Shown here: piece by piece, positions 1 to 12,624 of the stretch | Numbering within the stretch: the first letter of the stretch is position 1 | Layout of the letters: each line of letters begins with the position of its first letter | Source: an uncultured archaeon | GTDB taxonomy: Archaea; Asgardarchaeota; Lokiarchaeia; Sigyniarchaeales; Promethearchaeaceae | Length of the DNA stretch: 19,105 nucleotides | Direction: 5' to 3' | Assembly (NCBI GenBank): GCA_964426185.1 | Contig: CAYRPF010000035.1 | Location: 12,570-31,674, forward strand | Notes under the pieces: generated by a model | What the model was told of the DNA's origin: nothing | The model's database searches: none | Seen by the model: the letters and a program-made list of their open reading frames with translations, nothing else | Made by a program: the position numbers and the translations under genes

Positions 1-410
1 TCGCATGAATATTTGCCCCATTCTCAATCAAAAATTTCACAATATCTAAATTTCCGGTTTGAACACTTTTACGAAAAGCCTCATCGTTTTTCGCATGAAT
101 ATTTGCCCCATTCTCAATCAAAAATTTCACAATATCTAAATTTCCAAATTCTGCACTTTTTCTTATTGCAAAGTCTTTATCTAAACGAATATCCACTCCA
201 TTTTCAATTAAAAGTTTCACAATATCTAAATTTCCTGTTTGAACACTTTTACGAAAAGCTTCATCATTTTTCGCATGAATATCAGCGCCATTCTCAATTA
301 AAAGTTTCACAATAGCAAAATTTCCATGTTGAACACTTTTACGAAAAATCTCATCTTTTTTAGCATGAATATCAGCCCCATTTTCAATCAAAAATTGAGC
401 CATATCATTA
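1..410. repeat. 90-bp coding tandem repeat (near-identical C-terminal ankyrin units)
   Basis: Positions 1-55 are identical to 91-145. Positions 35-102 and 215-282 differ at only 3 sites. The 90-bp period continues through 271-410. Confidence 0.9.
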
Positions 411-1291
411 TGTCCGTTTTTTTCGCACCAATTAAGAATCAAACTTGCTTTTTCAGGTTTAGATTTAGCAAAATATTTAAGTATAGCCAAATTTCGATTT
501 TCTACAATTTCCTTTAGGAGCTTTTTATCTTTAACATTAATATCATCACCATATTTGGATATGTATTTGAGAATCCCCCAGTTTTCATTTTCTATGTACT
601 TTCGAAGAGTTAAAGTACTAATACCTTCAATTTTTGCCCCATGCATTATCAAGTATTCGGATAATTTCCGATTTTGCATTTCTATACTCTTTTTCAATGC
701 ATAATCATTATCAACATGTGTGTCTGCACCAGATTCTAATAAAAATCGAGCAAAGTTCCAATTATTTTGTTGAATACTCCTTCTAAGAAGATATTCATTT
801 TTTGCATGAATATTTGCCCCCTTTTCAATTAAATAATTCACTATTTCCCAATGATTTAAGGCAAAACTCCATCTAATGGCATAATCATCATCGGCATGAA
901 TATCTGCACCATTTTCGATCAAATATTTGATAACTTCCAGGTGATTTCTCTTGGCGCTCACTCTAAGGGCATAATCATTGTCTGCATGTATATTAGCGCC
1001 ATGATCGACTAAAAATTTGACATATTCTAAATTCCCTTTTACTGCATACTCCCGAAAGACTAAATCGTCATCTAAGTGGATTGCAGCCCCATGTTTTATC
1101 AAAAATTTTATCATTTCCCAATTATTTCTGCGAATACTTTCTCGTAGTGCATAATCATTGTCTAAATGGACATCAGCACCTTTGTTGATAAAATTTTTAA
1201 CAATTTCCCACTTTCCCCATTTAATACTTTCTCGGAAAGCAAAATTATCTTGAAAATCAAAGGTTGCTTCATTTATGATCAAATTTTTCAT
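1..1291 (-). CDS. Ankyrin-repeat protein with about 14 visible 30-aa repeats; 3' end lies beyond the window edge (partial)
   Basis: Manual translation from ATG at 1291 is open to position 1: MKNLIINEATFDFQDNFAFRESIKWGKWEIVKNFINKGADVHLDNDYALRESIRRNNWEMIKFLIKHGAAIH...NDEAFRKSVQTGNLDIVKFLIENGANIHA. It contains repeated G/NxLxIVKxLIENGADIHA ankyrin helix-2/loop motifs. GAGG lies just upstream of the ATG. Not in the supplied ORF track. Confidence 0.93.
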   Translation of the reverse strand, partial: MKNLIINEATFDFQDNFAFRESIKWGKWEIVKNFINKGADVHLDNDYALRESIRRNNWEMIKFLIKHGAAIHLDDDLVFREYAVKGNLEYVKFLVDHGANIHADNDYALRVSAKRNHLEVIKYLIENGADIHADDDYAIRWSFALNHWEIVNYLIEKGANIHAKNEYLLRRSIQQNNWNFARFLLESGADTHVDNDYALKKSIEMQNRKLSEYLIMHGAKIEGISTLTLRKYIENENWGILKYISKYGDDINVKDKKLLKEIVENRNLAILKYFAKSKPEKASLILNWCEKNGHNDMAQFLIENGADIHAKKDEIFRKSVQHGNFAIVKLLIENGADIHAKNDEAFRKSVQTGNLDIVKLLIENGVDIRLDKDFAIRKSAEFGNLDIVKFLIENGANIHAKNDEAFRKSVQTGNLDIVKFLIENGANIHA

Positions 1292-1388: not shown

Positions 1389-2276
1389 TCAGAGTATTGC
1401 AGGAAATTCTTCAACTTTTTCAACTTTTACCTTATTTGGATAAATTTCTCCCATTTTTGGGGGCATTGAATTATAAACTCTTTCAATATCAACAATCCCT
1501 GTTTTTCTTTGAATCCCTAAGAATCTTCCTTTGATCAATTGAGTAACCATCTCAAAATCCATGGCGAACATGGCAACTTTCGAATCTTTTGGAATTGAGA
1601 GAAGATCATCTTTGAACTGCGTCAAAGGAATCCTAATTCGCTTACCTTCAACTGTACGGGCTTGAAAACAAGGAATAATAACTGGATATCCATCAGTATC
1701 AATATAACTAATGAATTTGGGAAAAATCGGTCCACTGAACAAGCGAATACCTACCGGTTCTAAACGTTCTTCATAATCTCCAGTTTTAGCTTTGAATTGA
1801 AATGGATTTAAATTTGCTAAAATACCCCTTACAATTCCAAAAAGAGAGATGTTACGGATTTTACGTGCTTGAATTATGCGATTAAAAAATGTTCGATAGA
1901 TTCGCATGTAGGTGTTATAACGAAAGAGACTTATCTGATTGAAATCTGCGGCATCTTCACCATCAGTAGAAATCGATTCGAGTTCACCTTTTACTTGAAG
2001 AAATTGGAAAGGCATCTCGGCCGTCATATATAGAAAGCCTTGTTTTGGGTTTTTTACTACATTTGATTTACTCTGTCCTGTGGTAAATTCACCCCATTTA
2101 AGTACTGATGGAGAAGTTGCTTTATTTGAAGTGATCATAGTTATATGGGGATAACCTTGCGGGTCAATTGTTGCAACAAATTTAGCCATAATTTCTATAT
2201 GAGAAAATTTTACTGCAGACTCATCCAACTCAGGAAGCCAGTGAAACTTATTAGTTGTAGATTTCATAATTTTCAT
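1389..2276 (-). CDS. Tandem-domain pyridoxamine 5'-phosphate oxidase-like (split-barrel flavin-binding) protein
   Basis: Domain 1 is KFVATIDPQGYPHITMI...GQSKSNVVKNPK, typical of PNPOx-like proteins (ATxxxxGxP...kskxNxxxNP). An internal repeat KFISYIDTDGYPVIIP marks a second, more degenerate copy. Confidence 0.75.
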   Translation of the reverse strand: MKIMKSTTNKFHWLPELDESAVKFSHIEIMAKFVATIDPQGYPHITMITSNKATSPSVLKWGEFTTGQSKSNVVKNPKQGFLYMTAEMPFQFLQVKGELESISTDGEDAADFNQISLFRYNTYMRIYRTFFNRIIQARKIRNISLFGIVRGILANLNPFQFKAKTGDYEERLEPVGIRLFSGPIFPKFISYIDTDGYPVIIPCFQARTVEGKRIRIPLTQFKDDLLSIPKDSKVAMFAMDFEMVTQLIKGRFLGIQRKTGIVDIERVYNSMPPKMGEIYPNKVKVEKVEEFPAIL

Positions 2277-2363
2277 CTTTGATTTTTATTTTTAATTTTC
2301 TTAATTTTGGCAATTCTTTTAATTCTAATTATTCTTTAAGTTGATTTAGTTGTTTTTCTATCG

Positions 2364-2388
2364 AAAAAAAATGAATCCCAGCGGAATT
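2364..2388 (-). terminator. Possible hairpin plus U8 terminator after the activase gene
   Basis: Minus-strand RNA reads AAUUCC-GCU-GGGAUU-CA-UUUUUUUU, about 30 nt after the stop at 2418. Confidence 0.4.
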
Positions 2389-2417
2389 TTTTATTCATTC
2401 AGCAATTACCTCAATTT

Positions 2418-3398
2418 CTACAGCTGGGTAGGGCCGGACCATTGAACATTTACTCCAACAATTTTTTGTGCAATTTGAACGTAATGTTCCATTTCGGCTT
2501 TAGTTAACAATGAACTGGATTTCAAAGGCCAGTTAAGATCTAATCGTTCGTACTTAGCGAGTGCCAAGTTATTAAATGACAGTAAATCCCATCTTTCAAC
2601 AGCATCTCCTAAATTTGTAGAAATAAATTGTGCAATTCCTTCAACGTTATCATCACGGGCAGTATAACCAGGAATTAAAGGAGTTCGAATCCAGAGTTTC
2701 ACTTGGACACCTGAATGAATTGAATCCGCCAACCATTTGCAATTCTTTAAAATGGTTTTATTTGAAACTCCAGTATATTCCTTATGCCGAATGGGATCAA
2801 TTTCTTTCAAATCATATAAGATTAGGTCAACATACGGAAGAATTTTTTCATAAACGGCCTGTGAAGCAAAACCAGACGTATCCAAGGCAGTATGAATCCC
2901 ATTTCTTTTGCATTCTTTCAGAAACTTTATTAAGAAATCAATCTGAAGTGTTGGTTCTCCCCCAGAACAAGTTATTCCACCGTTTGATGTCTCGAAATAA
3001 GATTTATCTTTGATTACTTCATTCACCAGAGTTTCTAAAGCGATTTTTTCTCCACTTACTTTCAATGCTGTTGTAGGACAAATTTCTGCGCATGAACCAC
3101 ATGCTAAGCATGTATCTCGATTAATTCTTAATCCAAATTTATCAAATGACAAAGAATTAGTGGGACAAACATCAATACACTGCTCACATCCAATGCATTT
3201 ATTATCAAACCACTGAATAGCCTTTCGGTATTCGATGGATTCTGGGTTATGGCACCACACGCATTTAAGTGGACATTGTTTGAAAAAAATGGTAGTTCGA
3301 ATACCTGGCCCATCTTCAGTGCTAAGCCTTTGAATTTCAAAGATATATCCTTCTTCATCTGAACTTTCTGCTTTTTGCTCCATTACCATAGTATTCAT
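2418..3398 (-). CDS. Glycyl-radical enzyme activating enzyme (radical SAM) with 2x[4Fe-4S] ferredoxin insert
   Basis: Motifs DGPGIRTTIFFKQCPLKCVWCHNPES (CxxxCxxC), ferredoxin motifs CIGCEQCIDVCP and CLACGSCAEICP, GGITCSGGEP, HTALDTSG, LYDLK and IRTPLIPG. It lies 30 bp downstream of a GRE gene. Confidence 0.95.
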   Translation of the reverse strand: MNTMVMEQKAESSDEEGYIFEIQRLSTEDGPGIRTTIFFKQCPLKCVWCHNPESIEYRKAIQWFDNKCIGCEQCIDVCPTNSLSFDKFGLRINRDTCLACGSCAEICPTTALKVSGEKIALETLVNEVIKDKSYFETSNGGITCSGGEPTLQIDFLIKFLKECKRNGIHTALDTSGFASQAVYEKILPYVDLILYDLKEIDPIRHKEYTGVSNKTILKNCKWLADSIHSGVQVKLWIRTPLIPGYTARDDNVEGIAQFISTNLGDAVERWDLLSFNNLALAKYERLDLNWPLKSSSLLTKAEMEHYVQIAQKIVGVNVQWSGPTQL

Positions 3399-3428
3399 CT
3401 TGAGTTCCTTCGCTTTTTTAGTCCTTTT

Positions 3429-5960
3429 TTACCAATTATGAGATTCACGGGCGATAATTTCATCTTGGAGTTCTTTTCCAATACTAGTGAAATAGGCATT
3501 GTAGCCAGTTACCCGTACTAATAGATTTCCATAATTTTCTGGATGTTTTTGGGCATCTTTTAGCATTAGACTATCAAGGATATTTATCTGAAGGGCCGTT
3601 CCTCCATTTTCAATATATCCTCGAAGGTAAGATTTGAATTTATCTCTATGTTCTTTATCTCGCAGTAAACTGGGATTGAAAGTGATAGTATGAGACGCTC
3701 CGTTTGGTAGAAAATTGATATAAGAACCATCATCGGATTTTCCGCCTAAAGCTTCTCCCACGGAATTTGTGACGGAAGTCGGCCCATTCTTATCTGCCCC
3801 ATTGCTTGGACATATTGCATTTGACAAAAAGGTTCCAGCATTTCTTCCATCTGGTGTTGCAGGAGTAAATGCAGCATCTTCTCCCGCCCAATAATTCCAA
3901 GATAACATACCCGGCCTAAATTGATAGCCAGTTGGGGTTTTATATTTCCAACATTCATTTGCCCAGAATTTCATCACTTCTTGAGCCAATTTATCAGATT
4001 CAAGGTCATTATTACCATATTTAGGAACTTTATTCTTCATCAATGCTTGCATTATTCGGTATTCTTTCTTTCCTTGAAAATCATTACTTAATGCTTCTTT
4101 TATTTCCGCAATGGTATATTTTTTCTGATCATAAACCAAAGATTTGATTGCCAATAGAGAATCTACTGTAGTTGCAAAGGCAACACCTTCAATTGTTACA
4201 AATCCGTATTTTGGCGGCGCTACCCTAATATCAGCAGCATTTTCTATACATCCTTCCACGATTGTAGATAAATAGGGTGTAGGATAATATTTCGCACGAG
4301 TAGCTTCAAAAATATTGTAGGTTTCAACCGTGTACTTTATAATAAATGCCATTTGCTGTTTCCATGCATTGAAAAATTCGTCCCAAGTGGCAAATTTTTC
4401 GGGATCTCCCGTTTTAGGTCCGAATTGAGTTCCTGGTTTTGCTTGTTTGAAGATATCACTTCCCATAATTCGTTTAAAACCAGGCTGATTCTTTCCATTC
4501 CACAGAGTTAATTCTATGCTTTTAGCGAGATTAGGATTGCAATTGACGGTACCCGATCTATCATTTCCACACATAGTATTTTCCAGGCATCCAACACAAG
4601 CATAATCCCAAGCATCTTCAGGAGGAACCCCCTCACGAATCATTCCCACAATAGTGCGTTCGTCGAAATTCAAGATAAAGGGCGCCCCCTGAGAGCGAGT
4701 TATCATATTTACAATCACATCCAATAAACGCTCAGGAGAATTACGATGAAGCCGAACGTTTGGCTTAGGTTCAAGAATTGGAGCCCATTCATCGAAAACT
4801 TCCAAAATCATATAGGTAAGTTCATTAGTTAGATCTTCTCCTTTAGGACCCATACCAGAGAGTGTCATTAATTGTCCAAATCCAGCAGTTATTCCTTGAT
4901 TACCCACACGCATTTGCGCATCGTAGGCAGTATTACAGTGAAATATGAAAGAACTGAAGATATCTTTAGCAAAATCTCTAGAAATTTTTTTTGTTTCTAT
5001 CACATCTCGCTTATAGAACTGCCATAAATATTGATCCAATCGTCCAAAACTCGTTCCTGGTCCAGGATATGATTCCTCGGCCATAATCAACATGTGAGTT
5101 AACCATAATGCTTGCATGGCTTCCCAGAAAGTTTGAGCTGGTTCCCAAGGAACACGACGTAAATTATCGGCCATAGTTTGAAGTTCAGCTTTTCGTTCCG
5201 AAGAAGTAGTTTTCTCTTTCAATCGTAGACATTCTTCTGCATATTTAGCAGCCAGATCACGAGGAATTTCACATGCCATCATCATGGCTCTAAGTTCTGC
5301 ACCCTTGGCTCCATTTTTTTCCTTTTCTGTGAGGCGCGAGTATCTTTGTTTGGCTTTTTCATAATAATATTTAAAACCGTGTAAAATCACTCCCTTATGA
5401 TTAGGAATGAGATGACCTCCAGTAGCACCGACATTTCCAAATCCTTCCTGATGGAAATGGAAAATTCGATGTCGATTCTTAATATTTTCCTTTTCATGCG
5501 CTTTTAATTCACGTTCATTGAGGCATTTGGATAACTGAGTGTTGAATCTTCCCCCTGCCAATAGGTCATTAGAAGATATAATTTCTTGGGGAAGATAATT
5601 TAGCATTACTTCTCGAAAGAAGATCATCCGACGCTCAGGAAGTGAAAGATCCCAGAAATTTTCCGGAAGATCTACTTGTTGTGCCATAAGATCTAATGAT
5701 AAACAGAATAATCCTTTCCCATTGACTCCAATAAAGCCATAAACTTCTGGAACGATATAGTAATCTCCCTCGCTCCAAATTCGATCATTTGAAATTCCAG
5801 TGGTAAATGGTGTATATTCATTATTCCATTTACGCTCATTGCCCATGAAATAGAATTTGCGTAACCAAGCAGCCCGTTTTGAAAGGTTATGAGGTTCTGC
5901 AACTTTAAAAAGGGGTGCTTGAAAATCCGTTTGAGGATTATCTTCGGTTATGTTACTCAT
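3429..5960 (-). CDS. Glycyl radical enzyme (PFL2/GRE family, single catalytic Cys; substrate unknown)
   Basis: C-terminal glycyl loop LLVRVTGYNAYF...LQDEIIAR, Cys loop YACVGCLEN, SFGRLDQYL, ATPDGRNAG and ALQINI. It lacks the CC pair of true pyruvate formate-lyase. Confidence 0.95.
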   Translation of the reverse strand: MSNITEDNPQTDFQAPLFKVAEPHNLSKRAAWLRKFYFMGNERKWNNEYTPFTTGISNDRIWSEGDYYIVPEVYGFIGVNGKGLFCLSLDLMAQQVDLPENFWDLSLPERRMIFFREVMLNYLPQEIISSNDLLAGGRFNTQLSKCLNERELKAHEKENIKNRHRIFHFHQEGFGNVGATGGHLIPNHKGVILHGFKYYYEKAKQRYSRLTEKEKNGAKGAELRAMMMACEIPRDLAAKYAEECLRLKEKTTSSERKAELQTMADNLRRVPWEPAQTFWEAMQALWLTHMLIMAEESYPGPGTSFGRLDQYLWQFYKRDVIETKKISRDFAKDIFSSFIFHCNTAYDAQMRVGNQGITAGFGQLMTLSGMGPKGEDLTNELTYMILEVFDEWAPILEPKPNVRLHRNSPERLLDVIVNMITRSQGAPFILNFDERTIVGMIREGVPPEDAWDYACVGCLENTMCGNDRSGTVNCNPNLAKSIELTLWNGKNQPGFKRIMGSDIFKQAKPGTQFGPKTGDPEKFATWDEFFNAWKQQMAFIIKYTVETYNIFEATRAKYYPTPYLSTIVEGCIENAADIRVAPPKYGFVTIEGVAFATTVDSLLAIKSLVYDQKKYTIAEIKEALSNDFQGKKEYRIMQALMKNKVPKYGNNDLESDKLAQEVMKFWANECWKYKTPTGYQFRPGMLSWNYWAGEDAAFTPATPDGRNAGTFLSNAICPSNGADKNGPTSVTNSVGEALGGKSDDGSYINFLPNGASHTITFNPSLLRDKEHRDKFKSYLRGYIENGGTALQINILDSLMLKDAQKHPENYGNLLVRVTGYNAYFTSIGKELQDEIIARESHNW

Positions 5961-6028
5961 GATAGTTACCTACTTCGTGTGAAGAACTAAATACGGTTTT
6001 CTTACATTTAATATTAAGTTAAACGATA

Positions 6029-6036
6029 TATTTATA
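6029..6036 (-). promoter_or_regulatory. Putative TATA box of the GRE cluster
   Basis: TATAAATA on the minus strand about 70 bp upstream of the ATG at 5960. An RBS-like AGGTA lies at 5967-5971. Confidence 0.5.
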
Positions 6037-6067: not shown

Positions 6068-6104
6068 GAAACCCAAGTTTCGGGCATGGAAACCCGAGTT
6101 TCCA
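6068..6104. promoter_or_regulatory. Two tandem palindromic operator-like sites GAAAC-N4-GTTTC
   Basis: GAAACCCAAGTTTC (6068-6081) and GAAACCCGAGTTTC (6089-6102; extends to TGGAAAC-CCGA-GTTTCCA). The copies are 13/14 identical, have a 21-bp period and lie upstream of the GRE TATA box. Confidence 0.6.
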
Positions 6105-6304: not shown

Positions 6305-8113
6305 TTAAGCTTTGTTATGTATTTCATTTATAAACTCGTATGATTGATGCTTGAAATATGTATTATACAGCCTTGCGTAATATCCATTTTTCTGCATTAA
6401 ATCTTCATGATTTCCCTGTTCCACAATTTTTCCATGATCCAAAACCACAATTCTATCTACGTGCCTTACCGTTCGCAATCGATGAGCAATAATAATAGAA
6501 GTTCGATTTTCCATGATTTTTTCCAGTGCTTCTTGAATCCTTGTTTCTGTAAACGGATCAACTGATGCTGTTGCTTCATCTAATATTAAAATAGAAGGAT
6601 CTTGTAATAACACTCGAGCAAAAACGACTAATTGGCGCTGACCCATTGAAAGTAGTTTTCCTCTTTCTCGAATATTGGTATCTAAACCATTAGATAAATC
6701 GTTTACCCAATCACCTCCTCCAGCTTGTTCCAAAGCCCATAAAACTTCTTCACGAGTTGCATCGGGATTCCCATATTTCACATTATTCTCTAAAGTATCA
6801 CCCCACAAGAAAGGAGTTTGAGGAATTAATCCCATCCGTCTTCGATATGTTTGTAAATCTAAGAAGCGGATATCTTGACCATCTATTGTAATTGTTCCAT
6901 TTTGAAATTCGTAAAATCTCAATAAAATTCGAGCTAAACTGGATTTTCCCGCACCTGTGTGCCCAACTATTGCCACTGATTCTCCAGGCGAGATGCGAAG
7001 CGAAAAATTATCAAAAACAGGCTTTTCAGGAGTATAACTAAAACATAAGTTGTTAATGGAAACCTCTCCTCTAATTTTTTCGAGTTTCTTAGAGCCTTTT
7101 TGGATAACTTGAGGTTTGCTATCAATTAACGCGAATATTCGCTCAGCAGCAGCCATACCCGTCTGGAATTGAGGCCAAAATGCTGCGATTGAAAAAAGTG
7201 GAAAGAATAACCCCCATAAACTTTGAATAAACAGATACAAGGTGGAAACAGAAATGGATGGATTCTTTAGCACAGATTCCCCTCCATAATATAAAATTAA
7301 GGCCAACATAATCCCTTGAATCAACCCCAAGCCGGGAAAGATGAAATTCATGAAAAGAGCTCGATTTAGGTTAATTTTATAGGACTTCTTGTTGATGTCT
7401 TTAAACTCACGGTATAGAGTATTTTCTTGGCGGAAAGTCTTTGCAATTTGAATACCATTCATGGTTTCTTGCACAAATGAATGTACATTAGCCAACACCC
7501 GTTGACCTTGAAGTGTCTTCTTTCTTGCGACCTTCCGAAAAGAGAGAGTAAATAGAAAGATCAAAGGAACCATGGCTAAAAAGATAAGAGTTAATTTAGC
7601 ATCAATTATAAACATTGGAACTAGCATAATTATTACAACCAGAAATGAAGAAATGGAATCGATGAATATTTGGGCCATCTCAAAGAAATTCTGGCTGTCA
7701 GAATTAATTCTGCTTACAATTTTCCCTGTTGGATACTTGTCAAAAAACGACATGTCTTGGATCAGTACTTGGGATTCAACATCAGCCCTTAATTGATATG
7801 TTACACTGTTTAAAATTACCGCCGAAAGGCTTTTATTAATGTAGTTGAAGAGATAGGAACTTATATTCATAATTAAAGTTACAATAACTAGAGCAACGAC
7901 CATTGTGGTCGAACTTGTTGTTTCGAGCTGTTTAATGATCAAACTAGTTAAGTAAGGTAAAACACCTGCAGTGATAGAGGTCAGAACTAGAAAGATAATG
8001 ACCACAATCATTTTTTTGGTGTGTTGTCGAAAATATTTCAAAATCCTACGAAAAAGTTCTCGATCGGAGTAAGTACGGTCATACTCTTCTGCATCTAATC
8101 CTGCATATACCAT
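6305..8113 (-). CDS. ABC exporter half-transporter (TMD-NBD), subunit with consensus Walker B Glu
   Basis: N-terminal TM helices, Walker A GHTGAGKS, non-canonical signature LSMGQRQL, Walker B ILILDEAT and H-loop IAHRL. Confidence 0.95.
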   Translation of the reverse strand: MVYAGLDAEEYDRTYSDRELFRRILKYFRQHTKKMIVVIIFLVLTSITAGVLPYLTSLIIKQLETTSSTTMVVALVIVTLIMNISSYLFNYINKSLSAVILNSVTYQLRADVESQVLIQDMSFFDKYPTGKIVSRINSDSQNFFEMAQIFIDSISSFLVVIIMLVPMFIIDAKLTLIFLAMVPLIFLFTLSFRKVARKKTLQGQRVLANVHSFVQETMNGIQIAKTFRQENTLYREFKDINKKSYKINLNRALFMNFIFPGLGLIQGIMLALILYYGGESVLKNPSISVSTLYLFIQSLWGLFFPLFSIAAFWPQFQTGMAAAERIFALIDSKPQVIQKGSKKLEKIRGEVSINNLCFSYTPEKPVFDNFSLRISPGESVAIVGHTGAGKSSLARILLRFYEFQNGTITIDGQDIRFLDLQTYRRRMGLIPQTPFLWGDTLENNVKYGNPDATREEVLWALEQAGGGDWVNDLSNGLDTNIRERGKLLSMGQRQLVVFARVLLQDPSILILDEATASVDPFTETRIQEALEKIMENRTSIIIAHRLRTVRHVDRIVVLDHGKIVEQGNHEDLMQKNGYYARLYNTYFKHQSYEFINEIHNKA

Positions 8114-9970
8114 TTATGTTTGTGCCTCCAATAATTCATCTAATGATTTATCAAAACGAGTTACGAATATTTTACGATATTCTTCACAAGTTCTGAGCAA
8201 TTCTTCGTGAGAGCCTTGAGCTTTAATTCTTCCATGTGAAAGTACGAGAATTTTATCAGCCCATCTGATTTGTGAGAGCCGATGAGTAATGATAAAGGTG
8301 GTTCGACCCTTAAGGATCTGTGTTATTGCATATTGAATTTTCTCTTCAGTTTCAGAATCTATAGCTGAGGTAGAATCGTCCAAAATTAGAATTTTAGGAT
8401 TGGATAAAAATGCCCTCGCTATGGCGATTCTTTGCCGTTCTCCCCCGCTTAATTGAACACCTCGTTCTCCGACGGATGTTTCATAACCTTTAGGTAATTT
8501 TAGGATGAAATCATGAGCTTGTGCATCCTTGGCAGCTTTGATCACCGCATCCTTAGAAGCTTTTCTGCCGAAAAGAATGTTTTCATAAATGTTCTTTGAA
8601 AAGAGGAATATATCTTGCTCAATATACGAGATTTGATCCCGAAGAGAATGAAAAGAGTATTTTTGCAGATCGAATCCATCTAATGTAATACACCCAGAGT
8701 CAATATCATACAAACGAGAAATCAACTTAGTTAAGGTGGTTTTTCCCGAGCCAGTAGTACCTACTATAGCAACAGTTTGCCCCGCATAAACTTCAAAGGA
8801 TATATCTTCCAACACTTTGGTTTCGCTTCCAGGATAATGGAAAGAAACATTTTCAAATTTGATGTTCCCTTCAATTTCTCTCTTCAAAGGTGAAGCCGAT
8901 TCAGAGATTTCAGATTCTTGGTTCATTATTCCCAGTAACCGCTCAGCTCCAGCCCAAGCCCGCCTTACTATCGCAAATGCCCAGATACTAATATTTGTAG
9001 GAAATCTTAAACCGCCTAATAAACCAACGTATGCAATGATATCGCCAATGGTCATTGAGCCATGATAATAAAGAATGATGCCATGAATCAAACCACCGGT
9101 AACAGCCAATGCTACCAATAAAATGGGAATATAACGGGCTTGAATTTTTCCTTGAGTAATTCCTAAATTTTTATAACGGCTAGATGAGTATTCATACCGT
9201 TTTTTTGCAGTTTCTTCTTGGGCCATACCTTTGACTATTTCAATACCTGCCAGTGATTCGTTTAAAATGGAGTTCAAATTTCCATATTCCATTTGCAAAT
9301 CGACACTTACTGGACCAAGTTGATCCACATAGAGCTTCAAGGTATAAATAAATAGTATGCTAAAAATCAAGGGTGTGATTAGTAATTCCAATGGATAAAA
9401 ACGGATGATTAAAATAATTGGCAAGAGAACATTGATAAATGCTTCGAAAATCAAAGAAAGCGCAGGAGATATAAGATAATTCAATTGACGGACATCATTG
9501 GTAGCTCTTGCCATGATATCTCCAATTTTCTGGCGATCATGGAAACTTTGGCTTTTACCCAAGAGATTTACATATAATTCATAGCGTGCATCGCGCTCCA
9601 AGCGTTGAGCCAATAATTCTCTGGTCATATTTGCCACTAAATCAATAATTGGAGATAAAACTCCAAAGAGAAGGATTAAAAGAAGAAAATTTCTGAAGAG
9701 TTCTTCATTAGTAATTTTGAGAGCGTCAATTGCATTTCCAATATATTGTTTCATTTTTGCGAATAGAAATGCAGATAACACCACTAAGCTTAACCAAGTA
9801 AAAACTATAATTGAATTAATGCGATAAAATATATGATGCAATATCCAATAAGTTGCTCCTTTTCGACGACTTTTCATAAAAGGATCATATTCTGGATGAA
9901 ATTCTAAGATATCATTATATTTATCAAACTGCTTTATCATTCTGATGAGCAAGGATAGATCTATTAACAA
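8114..9970 (-). CDS. ABC exporter half-transporter (TMD-NBD), subunit with degenerate Walker B; true start may be ATG at 9940
   Basis: TM helices, Walker A GTTGSGKT, signature LSGGERQR, Walker B ILILDDST (Asp in place of catalytic Glu) and ITHRL. The TAA stop abuts the next gene's ATG (TAAATG). Confidence 0.95.
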   Translation of the reverse strand: MLIDLSLLIRMIKQFDKYNDILEFHPEYDPFMKSRRKGATYWILHHIFYRINSIIVFTWLSLVVLSAFLFAKMKQYIGNAIDALKITNEELFRNFLLLILLFGVLSPIIDLVANMTRELLAQRLERDARYELYVNLLGKSQSFHDRQKIGDIMARATNDVRQLNYLISPALSLIFEAFINVLLPIILIIRFYPLELLITPLIFSILFIYTLKLYVDQLGPVSVDLQMEYGNLNSILNESLAGIEIVKGMAQEETAKKRYEYSSSRYKNLGITQGKIQARYIPILLVALAVTGGLIHGIILYYHGSMTIGDIIAYVGLLGGLRFPTNISIWAFAIVRRAWAGAERLLGIMNQESEISESASPLKREIEGNIKFENVSFHYPGSETKVLEDISFEVYAGQTVAIVGTTGSGKTTLTKLISRLYDIDSGCITLDGFDLQKYSFHSLRDQISYIEQDIFLFSKNIYENILFGRKASKDAVIKAAKDAQAHDFILKLPKGYETSVGERGVQLSGGERQRIAIARAFLSNPKILILDDSTSAIDSETEEKIQYAITQILKGRTTFIITHRLSQIRWADKILVLSHGRIKAQGSHEELLRTCEEYRKIFVTRFDKSLDELLEAQT

Positions 9971-10062: not shown

Positions 10063-11118
10063 ATGCAGCCATATCATTTTATCAATCTATCTTTTGAAGA
10101 ACTTCAATATTTTCCGGAAAAGATGAGAAGATTGGTACAGAAATGGCAAGATCCCTGCATGAAAATTGATCGTTTAATTGCGACCTCACCCCAAAATATG
10201 ATAGAATTTCTGAAACAGGCATTTACTTCAAAAGAATCAATAAAAAAATCTCATTCTTCCACAACAAAGCTCATTCTCAATATTTTTTGCATCCCTTATA
10301 TCGATAAAATATTACAATTATTCCAAAATCTTTCAATTAATGTCCAAATGGAGATTTTATGCGATAATTCATGCAATTTAGCAGCAGAAAATGAGTTAAT
10401 TAATAATCTCTTGGAACAATTCCCCGTACTTTCAATCCCGAGATTTTCATTTATCCATTCTCAAGTTCATCTTGATTTCACAGCCAAAAGACCCATTTCT
10501 AGAAAAAGGAATCGCAATCCCCCTCTTAAATTCCAGAAAAAGCTGAAATCGAAGTTTCTTCAATATTTTCCTGCTTGTTTGGGTTCAGAATATTATGGAA
10601 ATGCCGTATTTAACATCTTTGAACAACTTTTCCTTAAATCTAGAATGCACATGGATGAAGAAGAAAAAATACAATATAATTCAACTTTGAAACCTATGGA
10701 ATTACCACTTCCGCCAAGTCCTATGAAGTACTATGATTTGCAAAACGAACAGCAAAATTGGATTGAATTACGCCTTAGTAATTATTTTGAATATCCTTTT
10801 TTCATTCAATTGATGGAATTAATTCAAAAAAACCTTGATACTTCGAAATTTCAGCTGTTCCGCAGTTCTTTTTGGTATGATTCATGGATGGATGGCATAC
10901 AATTCCGGCGAGCTTCACATGATCAAGTTTTATTCTCCCAAAGAGACATTGAATTTGCCTTTTATCAACAGAATCCAGAATTACTCTCTCTAATGAAAAA
11001 ACGACTTGGCTTTGGCACACTTTATTTTCAATTGACTGCTCCAATAGAAGATAATGATTTTCGAGTCAATCTTCTAGGAAATTTATGTGCAGAACACAAT
11101 TCCTTCCAGTTTCGTTAA
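10063..11118 (+). CDS. Hypothetical protein (351 aa, no recognisable domain)
   Basis: Long ORF in AT-rich DNA, divergent from the ABC genes, with an upstream TATA-like element. No motif recognised. Confidence 0.8.
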   Translation: MQPYHFINLSFEELQYFPEKMRRLVQKWQDPCMKIDRLIATSPQNMIEFLKQAFTSKESIKKSHSSTTKLILNIFCIPYIDKILQLFQNLSINVQMEILCDNSCNLAAENELINNLLEQFPVLSIPRFSFIHSQVHLDFTAKRPISRKRNRNPPLKFQKKLKSKFLQYFPACLGSEYYGNAVFNIFEQLFLKSRMHMDEEEKIQYNSTLKPMELPLPPSPMKYYDLQNEQQNWIELRLSNYFEYPFFIQLMELIQKNLDTSKFQLFRSSFWYDSWMDGIQFRRASHDQVLFSQRDIEFAFYQQNPELLSLMKKRLGFGTLYFQLTAPIEDNDFRVNLLGNLCAEHNSFQFR

Positions 11119-11169: not shown

Positions 11170-12624
11170 ATGAGCTCGATCCCAGCAAAAGAATTATTCA
11201 AAAAGGGAGAAGTCTATCTCAAGAAAGCCCAAAAATTCTATCATAGTCAACAATTTAAAGAAGCAAATCGTTGGTTGGATCAAGCTTTAGAGAAATTTCA
11301 AGCAGCCGATGCTATTTTCAAAGAGGCAGAAGTGTTGGATATAAAAGGAAATATTGCAGAATTTGAAGGACGATTTAAAGATGCTTTGAATTTTTTCCAA
11401 CGTGCTGCTAAGGTCCGTCAAGATCGATCTAATTTCCTTTTACAAGGTTTGTCATTTTATAATTTAGCTCGAGCTTACTTTCATTTATCTCAATACGAAG
11501 AATCTCTATCTACTGCATTAAAATCTTATGACTTATTTGAAATGGGCGAACCCAGCCAAAAGAAAGCTGAAATTATGTTATTACTAAGCCAAATTTACTA
11601 CGCTCAGCAAAATTACAAATCAGCTGCATTCTACCTTTCATTAACTCAGGAATTTCTTGAAAAACACCCTAATTATGCCTTTGAACTTCTTGTAATTGAA
11701 GATATGGCCCACATTTCATTTCAATTGGGAGAGTTGGAAAAAGCAGAAAAATATTACCTAAAAGCTTTGCAACGGGAACATGAATTAGGAAATTTCATGA
11801 TTGTATTGAATATTTTATCTGCCTTAATGGAATTATATGTAGAAATGGAAGATTTTAAAGAAGTAAAAAAAATTTTGACAGATTTCATCAAAATGGAAAA
11901 AGTACTATACAATACTTTTACTTTACATGAAAAAAGCAAGTTTCATTTTCAAGCGGCAAAAATATTGTATGAACTGGGAGAATTTTCTAGTTCTGCCGAA
12001 TATTGTGAAGAAGCCATTGAAAATAACGAATTACAACCCTCGCCTGATCTGAATCTTCTCGCCCAAGAATTAATCTTGATGTCAAAAAACCTAATTCACA
12101 CCCTCGGTGGAGAATCTATCGAAAACTTAGATAAAATTACTCCCTACTTAGAAGAAGCAAAAGAACATGCTCAAAAAGCAGGAAATTTTCATCCCCAAAT
12201 CGAAATTTTGCTTATTTATGAACGAATTGCCCGCTTAAAGGCAGATATTCATGCAGCAAAGAATTACCAAGAAACTGCTATGAAATTAGCCCAAGAATCT
12301 TCTCACAAGGATGAATTAGGTATCGCTGAAATTTGGGAAGAAAAAGCCATAGAAGCCCATAAGCAAGGAAATTTGGAACAAGCCCGCGAATATTTTCAAA
12401 ATGCTCAGAAAAGTTTTATGTTTGCAAAAGAGTATCGCCACTTAGCAAGTGTTTATTATAATTTAGCGTGTGTTTCGGCAAGACTTCATCTTCCAGAAGA
12501 TGTACTTCATTATTTAGAGAAAGCTATTCATTCCAATCCAAAATTTCGAAAACTTGCCAGTTGCGATGAAGATTTTCATGGCTTACATGAAAATGAACTC
12601 TTTTTGCAGTTGATAAAAGAGTGA
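11170..12624 (+). CDS. Tetratricopeptide-repeat protein with C-terminal TPR capping domain
   Basis: Multiple TPR-like units (FYNLARAYFHLSQYEESL; MAHISFQLGELEKAEKYYLKAL). The C-terminus YYNLACVSARL...YLEKAIHSNPKFRKLASCDEDFHGL matches the common YNLAC...DxDF TPR terminal domain. Confidence 0.9.
   Translation: MSSIPAKELFKKGEVYLKKAQKFYHSQQFKEANRWLDQALEKFQAADAIFKEAEVLDIKGNIAEFEGRFKDALNFFQRAAKVRQDRSNFLLQGLSFYNLARAYFHLSQYEESLSTALKSYDLFEMGEPSQKKAEIMLLLSQIYYAQQNYKSAAFYLSLTQEFLEKHPNYAFELLVIEDMAHISFQLGELEKAEKYYLKALQREHELGNFMIVLNILSALMELYVEMEDFKEVKKILTDFIKMEKVLYNTFTLHEKSKFHFQAAKILYELGEFSSSAEYCEEAIENNELQPSPDLNLLAQELILMSKNLIHTLGGESIENLDKITPYLEEAKEHAQKAGNFHPQIEILLIYERIARLKADIHAAKNYQETAMKLAQESSHKDELGIAEIWEEKAIEAHKQGNLEQAREYFQNAQKSFMFAKEYRHLASVYYNLACVSARLHLPEDVLHYLEKAIHSNPKFRKLASCDEDFHGLHENELFLQLIKE

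Follow-up and report, generated by a model that had tools for sequence, protein, structure and literature searches.

Which reaction is carried out by a glycyl radical enzyme (GRE) that is encoded in an uncultured Asgard archaeon together with its activase and a tandem split-β-barrel protein? GREs perform some of the hardest anaerobic reactions, and newly assigned families have opened pathways for choline, hydroxyproline, isethionate and 2,3-dihydroxypropane-1-sulfonate (DHPS). We analyzed a stretch of 19,105 nucleotides, called the window here (contig CAYRPF010000035.1, positions 12,570 to 31,674; G+C 33%), from an Asgard metagenome-assembled genome (MAG) of 3.26 Mb and 92% completeness. Three co-oriented minus-strand open reading frames (ORFs) within positions 1389-5960 encode the GRE, the activase and the split-barrel protein, hereafter the partner. 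The original prediction for this locus proposed a new anaerobic pathway, in which the product of an uncharacterized GRE is processed by a flavin- or F420-binding partner. The three-gene module proved real, although “pathway” overstates it, and its GRE is a widespread, uncharacterized eliminase-type family outside pyruvate formate-lyase (PFL), HypD and CutC.

The GRE scored 410 bits with the Pfam model PFL-like and 78 bits with Gly_radical, and it has the glycyl loop RVxG[FWY] of the superfamily as R816-V-T-G819-Y. All motifs previously quoted from it were present in its translation: CVGCLEN (455-461), RVTGYN (816-821), EESYPGPGTSFGR, GMLSWNYWAG, AGFGQLMTL and WLRKFYF...WNNEYTPFTTG. Two of them had been singled out as unusual and did not hold up as such, since the column of the “extra” Cys455 is occupied by Val, Cys, Pro or Ser in orthologues, and the “atypical” N terminus is a conserved trait of both the family and its sister subfamily. 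Among NCBIfam models the protein fell to the PFL2/glycerol-dehydratase subfamily, yet below its cut-off (423 versus 678 bits), and it lay far under every equivalog cut-off (HypD, NF043068, 374/1100; HpsG, 364/1000; CutC, TIGR04394, 324/1050; PFL, TIGR01255, 89.7/994). The top sequence match in the PDB was glycerol dehydratase (GDH; 1r8w, 308 bits); catalytic subunits of the benzylsuccinate synthase (BSS)/4-hydroxyphenylacetate decarboxylase (HPAD) type scored 160-210 bits. An AlphaFold model of the GRE (pLDDT 87.2, pTM 0.89) was about equally close to propanediol dehydratase (5i2g), HypD (6vxc), CutC and GDH (1r8w), with TM-scores of 0.75-0.81 and 22-27% identity. The X-succinate synthases and HPAD ranked lower, and PFL was absent from the 50 best matches. 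These results agree with the earlier proposal that the GRE belongs to no characterized family, as it resembles several eliminases alike at ∼25% identity.

HMMER alignments placed C458-L-E460 at the CXE loop and H183 at GDH His164. We also take H183 to be the equivalent of HypD His160 through the presumed homology of His160 with GDH His164, as the HypD alignment begins past that position. C458-x-E460, H183 and G819 were invariant in 55 orthologues (32 Asgard, 23 bacterial) and in subfamily B, a diverged branch described below. In GDH, H281, S282, Y339, D447 and Y640 are presumably the polyol-binding residues; H281/S282 are replaced by P301/G302 in the GRE, D447 by V472 and Y640 by L686, and a two-residue deletion lies where GDH Y339, CutC F395 and IslA (IseG) W374 sit. 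CutC Y506, like F395 a residue typical of CutC, is replaced by N475, and the sulfonate-binding Arg of IseG/IslA aligned with G684. GRE eliminases share a conserved CXE motif, and Asp278 and Asp339 of HypD are essential (Backman 2020, PMC7077986). These two residues correspond to G300 and G360, and the HypD carboxylate ligands Tyr450 and Thr645 to N475 and to W688 or a gap, respectively; HypD Phe340 is matched by F361. The pocket segments GH(I/L)IP, E(S/N)YPG(P/A)GxSFGR, NQGIT(A/S)G(F/Y)GQ, VGCLENTMxGNDRSGTV, RPGMLSWNYW, FLSNAICP and RVTGYNAYF were near-invariant in the 32 Asgard and 23 bacterial orthologues, which argues for one substrate in both domains.

The adjacent activase matched TIGR02494 with 319.5 bits (cut-off 174), along with Pfam Radical_SAM and two Fer4 motifs. 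Its cysteines form the CX3CX2C motif expected of a radical S-adenosylmethionine (SAM) activase of a GRE (C42x3C46x2C49) and two further motifs, C68xxC71xxC74xxxC78 and C97xxC100xxC103xxxC107.

To examine the linkage of the three genes, we scanned prokaryotic species, each represented by one genome, obtained 403 stretches and inspected the best 80 (41 Asgard, 39 bacterial). Within these, GRE, activase and partner followed in that order in nearly every locus with enough flank, the GREs were 52-85% identical, and the bacterial hosts were Desulfobacterota, Spirochaetota, Chloroflexota, Bacteroidota, Myxococcota and Bacillota. Counted over 188 loci from Asgard archaea and no fewer than six bacterial phyla, the trio stood together in nearly all that had enough flank. 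Metagenomes scanned with bacterial partners as seeds contributed 80 further loci, and both GRE and activase were present in 32 of the 33 with room upstream. Of the five apparent exceptions to linkage checked among the genome loci, four carry an orthologous GRE elsewhere in the genome. On one complete 2.27-Mb Asgard chromosome (locus L018), the cassette appears to be decaying: an intact partner stands with a truncated activase, and all that was found of the GRE is a fragment of 167 aa elsewhere. A search for RNA evidence listed only DNA runs, from hydrothermal-vent and marine-sediment metagenomes.

A survey with the partner profile was positive in 117 of 301 Asgard genomes (51 of the 90 high-quality ones), usually with a single match per genome. 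It also recovered subfamily B (∼115 bits) in other Asgard families, with identities of 42-47% for the GRE and 21-28% for the partner. GRE and partner adjoined in all 14 subfamily B regions fetched (L094-L107), with the activase also nearby in 13; the gene order was the same and the reading frames often overlapped. The source genome has two GREs but one partner, and three other genomes with the trio (G002-G004, those of L030, L016 and L051; two Asgard, one bacterial) hold 8-9 GRE paralogues each, some of them arrayed in tandem as groups of four (G004, contig C53). The partner goes specifically with this GRE family. Neither of the outcomes that would have refuted the original prediction was observed: the GRE falls into no characterized family, and in other genomes the split-barrel gene is closely linked to members of this GRE family. 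Bacterial and archaeal species genomes yielded more than 400 stretches with the partner profile, and this common family with its distinctive partner presents a well-defined target.

The AlphaFold model of the partner (pLDDT 85.5, pTM 0.84) consists of two split β-barrels, and profile matches assigned both halves to the COG3576 type. The N-terminal barrel resembled flavin mononucleotide (FMN)-binding split-barrel structures with Z-scores of 15.6-13.7, led by 3in6 (Swol_0183, 15.6), 2htd (Ldb0262, 15.0) and HupZ (5esc, 14.6); the PDB yielded no analogue with two such domains. Homologues formed 122 clusters at 90% identity, and the profile retrieved 407 representative clusters, all ∼260-337 aa or fragments. 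A search for longer homologues returned no fused forms, all 150 best representatives being at most 337 aa. Few residues are invariant over both subfamilies, and none of the conserved ones is a cysteine. Those that persist are [ST]-[KR]-x-N-[LV] (S69-K70-x-N72) and the basic-aromatic pair R119-Y120 in the first barrel, and Y268/P273 in the tail. In this fold, the [ST]-[KR]-x-N-[LV] motif binds the flavin phosphate. Judged from motif and fold, the N-terminal barrel of the partner is the most likely site of a single FMN, which would give one flavin site per pseudo-dimer. The flavin half of the predicted “flavin- or F420-binding” partner is favored by an FMN-type fold and motif, whereas F420 is unlikely because no FO synthase was found in the 92%-complete source genome and a CofE-like match fell below its cut-off.

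Upstream of the GRE, two perfect palindromes GAAAC-N4-GTTTC occupy 6068-6102, 5' of a TATA-like box; their distance from the start codon is 121-142 nt. One or two copies were found 69-154 nt 5' of the GRE in six loci (L001, L003, L007, L039-L041), against a background rate of 0.044 per kb. These loci belong to Ca. Harpocratesius repetitus FW102 (L001; Promethearchaeaceae, a 4.4-Mb single contig of the same genus as the source MAG), Lokiarchaeum ossiferum (L003), two Promethearchaeum MAGs and two others. A search of the source genome for a wider regulon returned seven sites and no further members, as the remaining five lie inside ORFs. A TetR-family gene adjoins the trio in five of the six loci, and its source-genome orthologue is on another contig (C15:41256-41840); in the PDB it came closest to the acyl-CoA-responsive FadR of Bacillus and to PfmR of Thermus (38-41 bits). 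From its conservation and placement, GAAAC-N4-GTTTC is probably a dedicated operator. At least 31 bacterial loci (14 + 17) have, directly 5' of the trio, a GntR regulator that carries an FCD/FadR_C domain. The operator and the FadR-like regulators provide an experimental handle, as the regulator ligand should indicate the GRE substrate.

Taking these observations together, we tentatively favor, at somewhat less than an even chance, a new family of aldehyde-producing 1,2-eliminases with an obligate, probably FMN-binding partner. With SAM and its three iron-sulfur (Fe-S) clusters, the activase would generate the radical at Gly819 of the GRE. Like their counterparts in GRE 1,2-eliminases of the CXE-loop type, Glu460 and His183 would serve as acid/base pair; loss of a leaving group beside the carbinol carbon would release an aldehyde or ketone. 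The partner would catalyze a redox or tautomer step, acting on either the substrate or the product of the GRE. The substrate may be a hydrophobic alcohol, possibly lipid-derived or sulfate-esterified, a class toward which the gene neighborhood leans.

The three trio genes are the only ones common to the loci of both domains; taken together, the neighbors speak for an aldehyde product and, more faintly, for a hydrophobic or esterified alcohol as substrate, with each association being lineage-bound. In a Desulfacyla-like clade (partners 74-85% identical), the partner is followed by a tungsten-type aldehyde:ferredoxin oxidoreductase (AOR), SCP2, an iron-type alcohol dehydrogenase (Fe-ADH) and a second small protein, sometimes with a TauE exporter next; TauE stands beside two bacterial loci. 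A zinc-type alcohol dehydrogenase (Zn-ADH) lies near the trio in four other loci (L009, L067, L072, L074). The presence of AOR, Fe-ADH and Zn-ADH genes by the trio in some bacteria fits an aldehyde product. Hints of a lipid-type substrate come from the FadR_C-bearing GntR regulator, the FadR-like TetR protein and SCP2, from acyl-CoA ligases and enoyl-CoA hydratases near the trio in some loci, and from a FabK-like gene. The latter, FabK/NMO-like, accompanies sulfatases found on the flanks of the trio, in two different arrangements, in eight loci from a single Asgard family. Bacterial loci L114 and L151 have another kind of sulfatase after the partner, so that this association is not limited to one archaeal family.

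Several observations weigh against this preferred reading. Apart from the regulators, the neighbors are clade-specific and heterogeneous (tetrahydromethanopterin genes, sulfatase, GH4, amidohydrolase, aminotransferases, and acetyltransferase, TrpY-like and transporter genes) and thus single out no common substrate. Resemblance to FadR is weak, with 41 bits for the TetR protein and a higher score of the GntR protein with NanR than with FadR. The polar residues that bind glycerol in GDH and hydroxyproline in HypD are Gly, Pro or hydrophobic residues in the GRE, and its chemistry could therefore differ from that of known eliminases. The partner has no recognizable NAD(P)H site and falls under the Pfam PNPOx_N threshold (23.2 versus 28.1 bits), although some homologues pass it, and its C-terminal tail, conserved and modeled at low confidence, is also compatible with a docking peptide.

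The last point leads to the view that the partner is a non-catalytic structural or regulatory subunit, which docks on the GRE and tunes access to the glycyl-radical domain in the manner of the BSS/HPAD small subunits. Strict 1:1 co-occurrence and co-divergence with the GRE, the stop/start overlaps from GRE through activase to partner in subfamily B, the strongly conserved tail of low pLDDT, and the lack of fused forms or of any other conserved enzyme partner would all suit such a subunit. We nevertheless regard it as rather unlikely, since the FMN-phosphate-type motif is kept in both subfamilies, the fold is nearest to flavin-binding members, and the known small subunits are Fe-S proteins whereas the partner has no conserved cysteine. 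A dedicated low-potential electron carrier, replacing flavodoxin in reducing the activase [4Fe-4S] cluster for SAM cleavage, is quite improbable. In its favor, the small FMN-binding protein of Desulfovibrio is among the structural neighbors of the partner, the genes for activase and partner overlap in subfamily B, and the partner often stays beside the activase with the GRE displaced in rearranged loci (L012, L015-L018, L030). In other loci (L009-L011, L024, L031, L035), however, it is the activase that moved while the partner remained with the GRE, and other GRE/activase pairs in the same genomes do without such a protein.

The identity of the GRE itself also allows other proposals. The idea raised originally, a HypD-like dehydratase of a hydroxylated amino acid or amine whose cyclic imine or enamine is reduced by the partner, has HypD as best NCBIfam equivalog and as a top structural neighbor, together with the retained equivalents of His160 and Phe340. 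The subfamily B operon, which in one family continues with a phosphinothricin-acetyltransferase (PAT)-like GNAT, a TrpY-family, amino-acid-sensing type of regulator and an efflux-type MFS transporter, could be read in the same sense, as could the two class-III aminotransferases after the trio in a Myxococcota operon (L074) and ProC 4-5 kb from the trio in four metagenome loci. We consider the idea improbable: the essential aspartates of HypD are glycines here, Tyr450 and Thr645 are not kept, these genomes have a separate ∼790-aa GRE paralogue (the second GRE of the cultured Asgard archaeon MK-D1 being annotated as HypD), and each of the supporting neighbors is confined to one lineage. Barely credible is a PFL or other 2-oxoacid formate-lyase, as most databases name the protein and as DSAG12_02704 of MK-D1 is called (Imachi 2020), or an alkyl- or benzylsuccinate synthase (Ass/Bss), as Asgard GREs have been described (Zhang 2021). 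The GRE has Gly457-Cys458 in place of the adjacent Cys-Cys pair of PFL, in addition to its low TIGR01255 score and structural distance. No ORFs for small Fe-S β/γ subunits were found in the window or related loci, and similarity to BSS and to methylalkylsuccinate synthase (MAS) is lower than to the eliminases. We did not adopt the Hermodarchaeota “Ass/Bss” as members of this GRE family; the one sequence compared is HypD-like, with the HypD-type WD...DF motif. Beyond the preferred eliminase, we see little chance for a bolder proposal, a two-component GRE/FMN-type enzyme with new GRE chemistry, such as anaerobic cleavage of lipid-derived diols or glycerol ethers, or of their sulfate esters, to fatty aldehydes or alcohols; separately, the MK-D1 “PFL” would not make formate. 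If true, Asgard archaea and sediment bacteria would have a route to recycle membrane lipids, and the 2-oxoacid-to-formate branch of Asgard syntrophy would need revision.

The case of MK-D1 deserves attention independently of that proposal. Its DSAG12_02704 was listed as a pyruvate formate-lyase under “2-oxoacid degradation” with an expression value of 251 (Imachi 2020, Supplementary Table 4). We found that DSAG12_02702 is the MK-D1 partner homologue, 88-89% identical to the partners of congeneric MAGs in which GRE, activase and partner are contiguous. Because of the neighboring locus tag and this synteny, we infer that DSAG12_02704, the only “pyruvate formate-lyase” of MK-D1, belongs to the present GRE family. 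No ORF in five Asgard genomes exceeded the PFL equivalog cut-off (TIGR01255), and controls scored above it. If the membership of DSAG12_02704 holds, the “hydrolytic” 2-oxoacid-to-formate route of the much-cited MK-D1 model rests on a mis-assigned gene.

The features of the locus are collected in Table 1. On the minus strand, two MsbA-like ABC exporter genes (8114-9970 and 6305-8113) are followed by a 345-bp spacer, the GRE, the activase (after 30 bp), the partner (after 141 bp) and an ankyrin-repeat gene. An alternative start of the partner, Met4 at position 2267, coincides with the start of the called homologue.

Table 1. Features of the GRE locus, in window coordinates
Feature	Position	Strand	Basis
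Glycyl radical enzyme (GRE), 843 aa; Cys458 in C-L-E460 loop, His183, Gly819 (RVTGYN)	3429..5960	-	Pfam/NCBIfam, alignments, AlphaFold model
GRE-activating radical-SAM enzyme, 326 aa; CX3CX2C and two ferredoxin-type 4Cys motifs	2418..3398	-	TIGR02494, Pfam Radical_SAM and Fer4
Tandem split-β-barrel partner, 295 aa; S69-K70-x-N72 in N-terminal barrel only; tail VYNSMPP...YP conserved	1389..2276	-	Homologue alignment, AlphaFold model
Palindromic operator-like site GAAAC-N4-GTTTC, copy 1, 5' of GRE	6089..6102	.	Conserved in related loci
Palindromic operator-like site GAAAC-N4-GTTTC, copy 2, 21 bp from copy 1	6068..6081	.	Conserved in related loci
TATA-like box TATAAATATAT, ∼66-76 nt 5' of GRE ATG	6026..6036	-	By sequence reading only

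The co-oriented exporter pair (6305-9970) is directly 5' of the GRE in Lokiarchaeum ossiferum as well, and one copy is found in Ca. Harpocratesius repetitus. The ankyrin-repeat gene 3' of the trio (2-1291, minus strand, 430+ aa) extends past the window edge. On the plus strand, a TPR protein with a “TPR end-of-group” domain (11170-12624) adjoins a 351-aa ORF (10063-11118) that has no family match and is common only to Ca. Harpocratesius repetitus.

Some of the lineage-specific neighborhoods suggested other functions for the trio. In L013, L025, L028 and ∼20 more loci from a single Asgard family (f2), the trio lies inside a putative tetrahydromethanopterin (H4MPT)-biosynthesis cluster with genes for pterin-binding/DUF4346, DUF1464, DUF447, archaeal dihydroneopterin aldolase, a GHMP-type ribofuranosylaminobenzene phosphate (RFAP) synthase-like protein, an AIR-synthase-related protein and a PP-loop protein; a small rubrerythrin-like gene stands just 5' of the GRE there. 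We rejected an H4MPT function, because the arrangement is confined to one lineage and neither a methanogen nor any other non-Asgard archaeon occurred among partner homologues or related loci. As a further ground, use of H4MPT is not known from the bacterial hosts. Separately, the PNPOx-like DSAG12_01383 of MK-D1 adjoins the gene for dihydropterin-RFAP synthase (Imachi 2020, Supplementary file 3), and split-barrel flavoproteins may also take part in Asgard methanopterin biosynthesis. The GNAT, efflux pumps, glyoxalase-fold protein and Nim-like fold can be read as a drug-resistance island, which we set aside as a lineage-specific coincidence.

A literature search returned no paper linking a GRE with a split-barrel/PNPOx protein or with ether-lipid cleavage, and an Asgard microcompartment preprint does not concern this GRE. 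The ESM Atlas returned only clusters without names. New here are the proposed MK-D1 assignment, the lack of a true PFL in five Asgard genomes, the operator, the AOR/SCP2/Fe-ADH operon extension and the recurrence of sulfatases in two domains. To our knowledge, a split-barrel partner accompanies no studied GRE.

Among known systems, the GRE has its best sequence and fold matches in GDH of C. butyricum (1r8w) and 1,2-propanediol dehydratase of R. inulinivorans (5i2g/9rco). It shares with them the ten-stranded barrel, the Cys-x-Glu loop, the β-1 His (H164, here H183), the Gly loop and an activase with two extra ferredoxin-type clusters, but identity is only ∼23-25% and those systems have no split-barrel partner. 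HypD, the top NCBIfam equivalog, likewise has the CXE loop and the His160 and Phe340 equivalents, whereas its product is handled by a Rossmann-type pyrroline-5-carboxylate (P5C) reductase instead of a split-barrel protein. CutC and IslA/IseG have the same eliminase scaffold, an aromatic-lined pocket and a Thr at Cys+13 (CutC T502, GRE T471). Their pathway logic is similar, with an aldehyde product passed to an alcohol dehydrogenase or aldehyde oxidoreductase and, at two bacterial loci here, a TauE-type exporter; they differ in F395/W374, which fall in the two-residue deletion, and in the sulfonate Arg, replaced by G684. The multisubunit GREs (BSS αβγ and HPAD) also always have an extra small protein besides the activase, but theirs are Cys-rich Fe-S subunits in place of a 295-aa tandem split barrel, and their catalytic subunits are more distant (160-210 bits). 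The partner itself is closest to COG3576-type proteins (3in6, 2htd and HupZ 5esc), which have the fold of each barrel and, in HupZ, a VERIFN strand resembling its I-E-x-V-Y-N. These are single-domain homodimers of ∼120-150 aa, whereas the partner is a fused pseudo-dimer with the flavin-phosphate-type motif in one half and an extra conserved tail.

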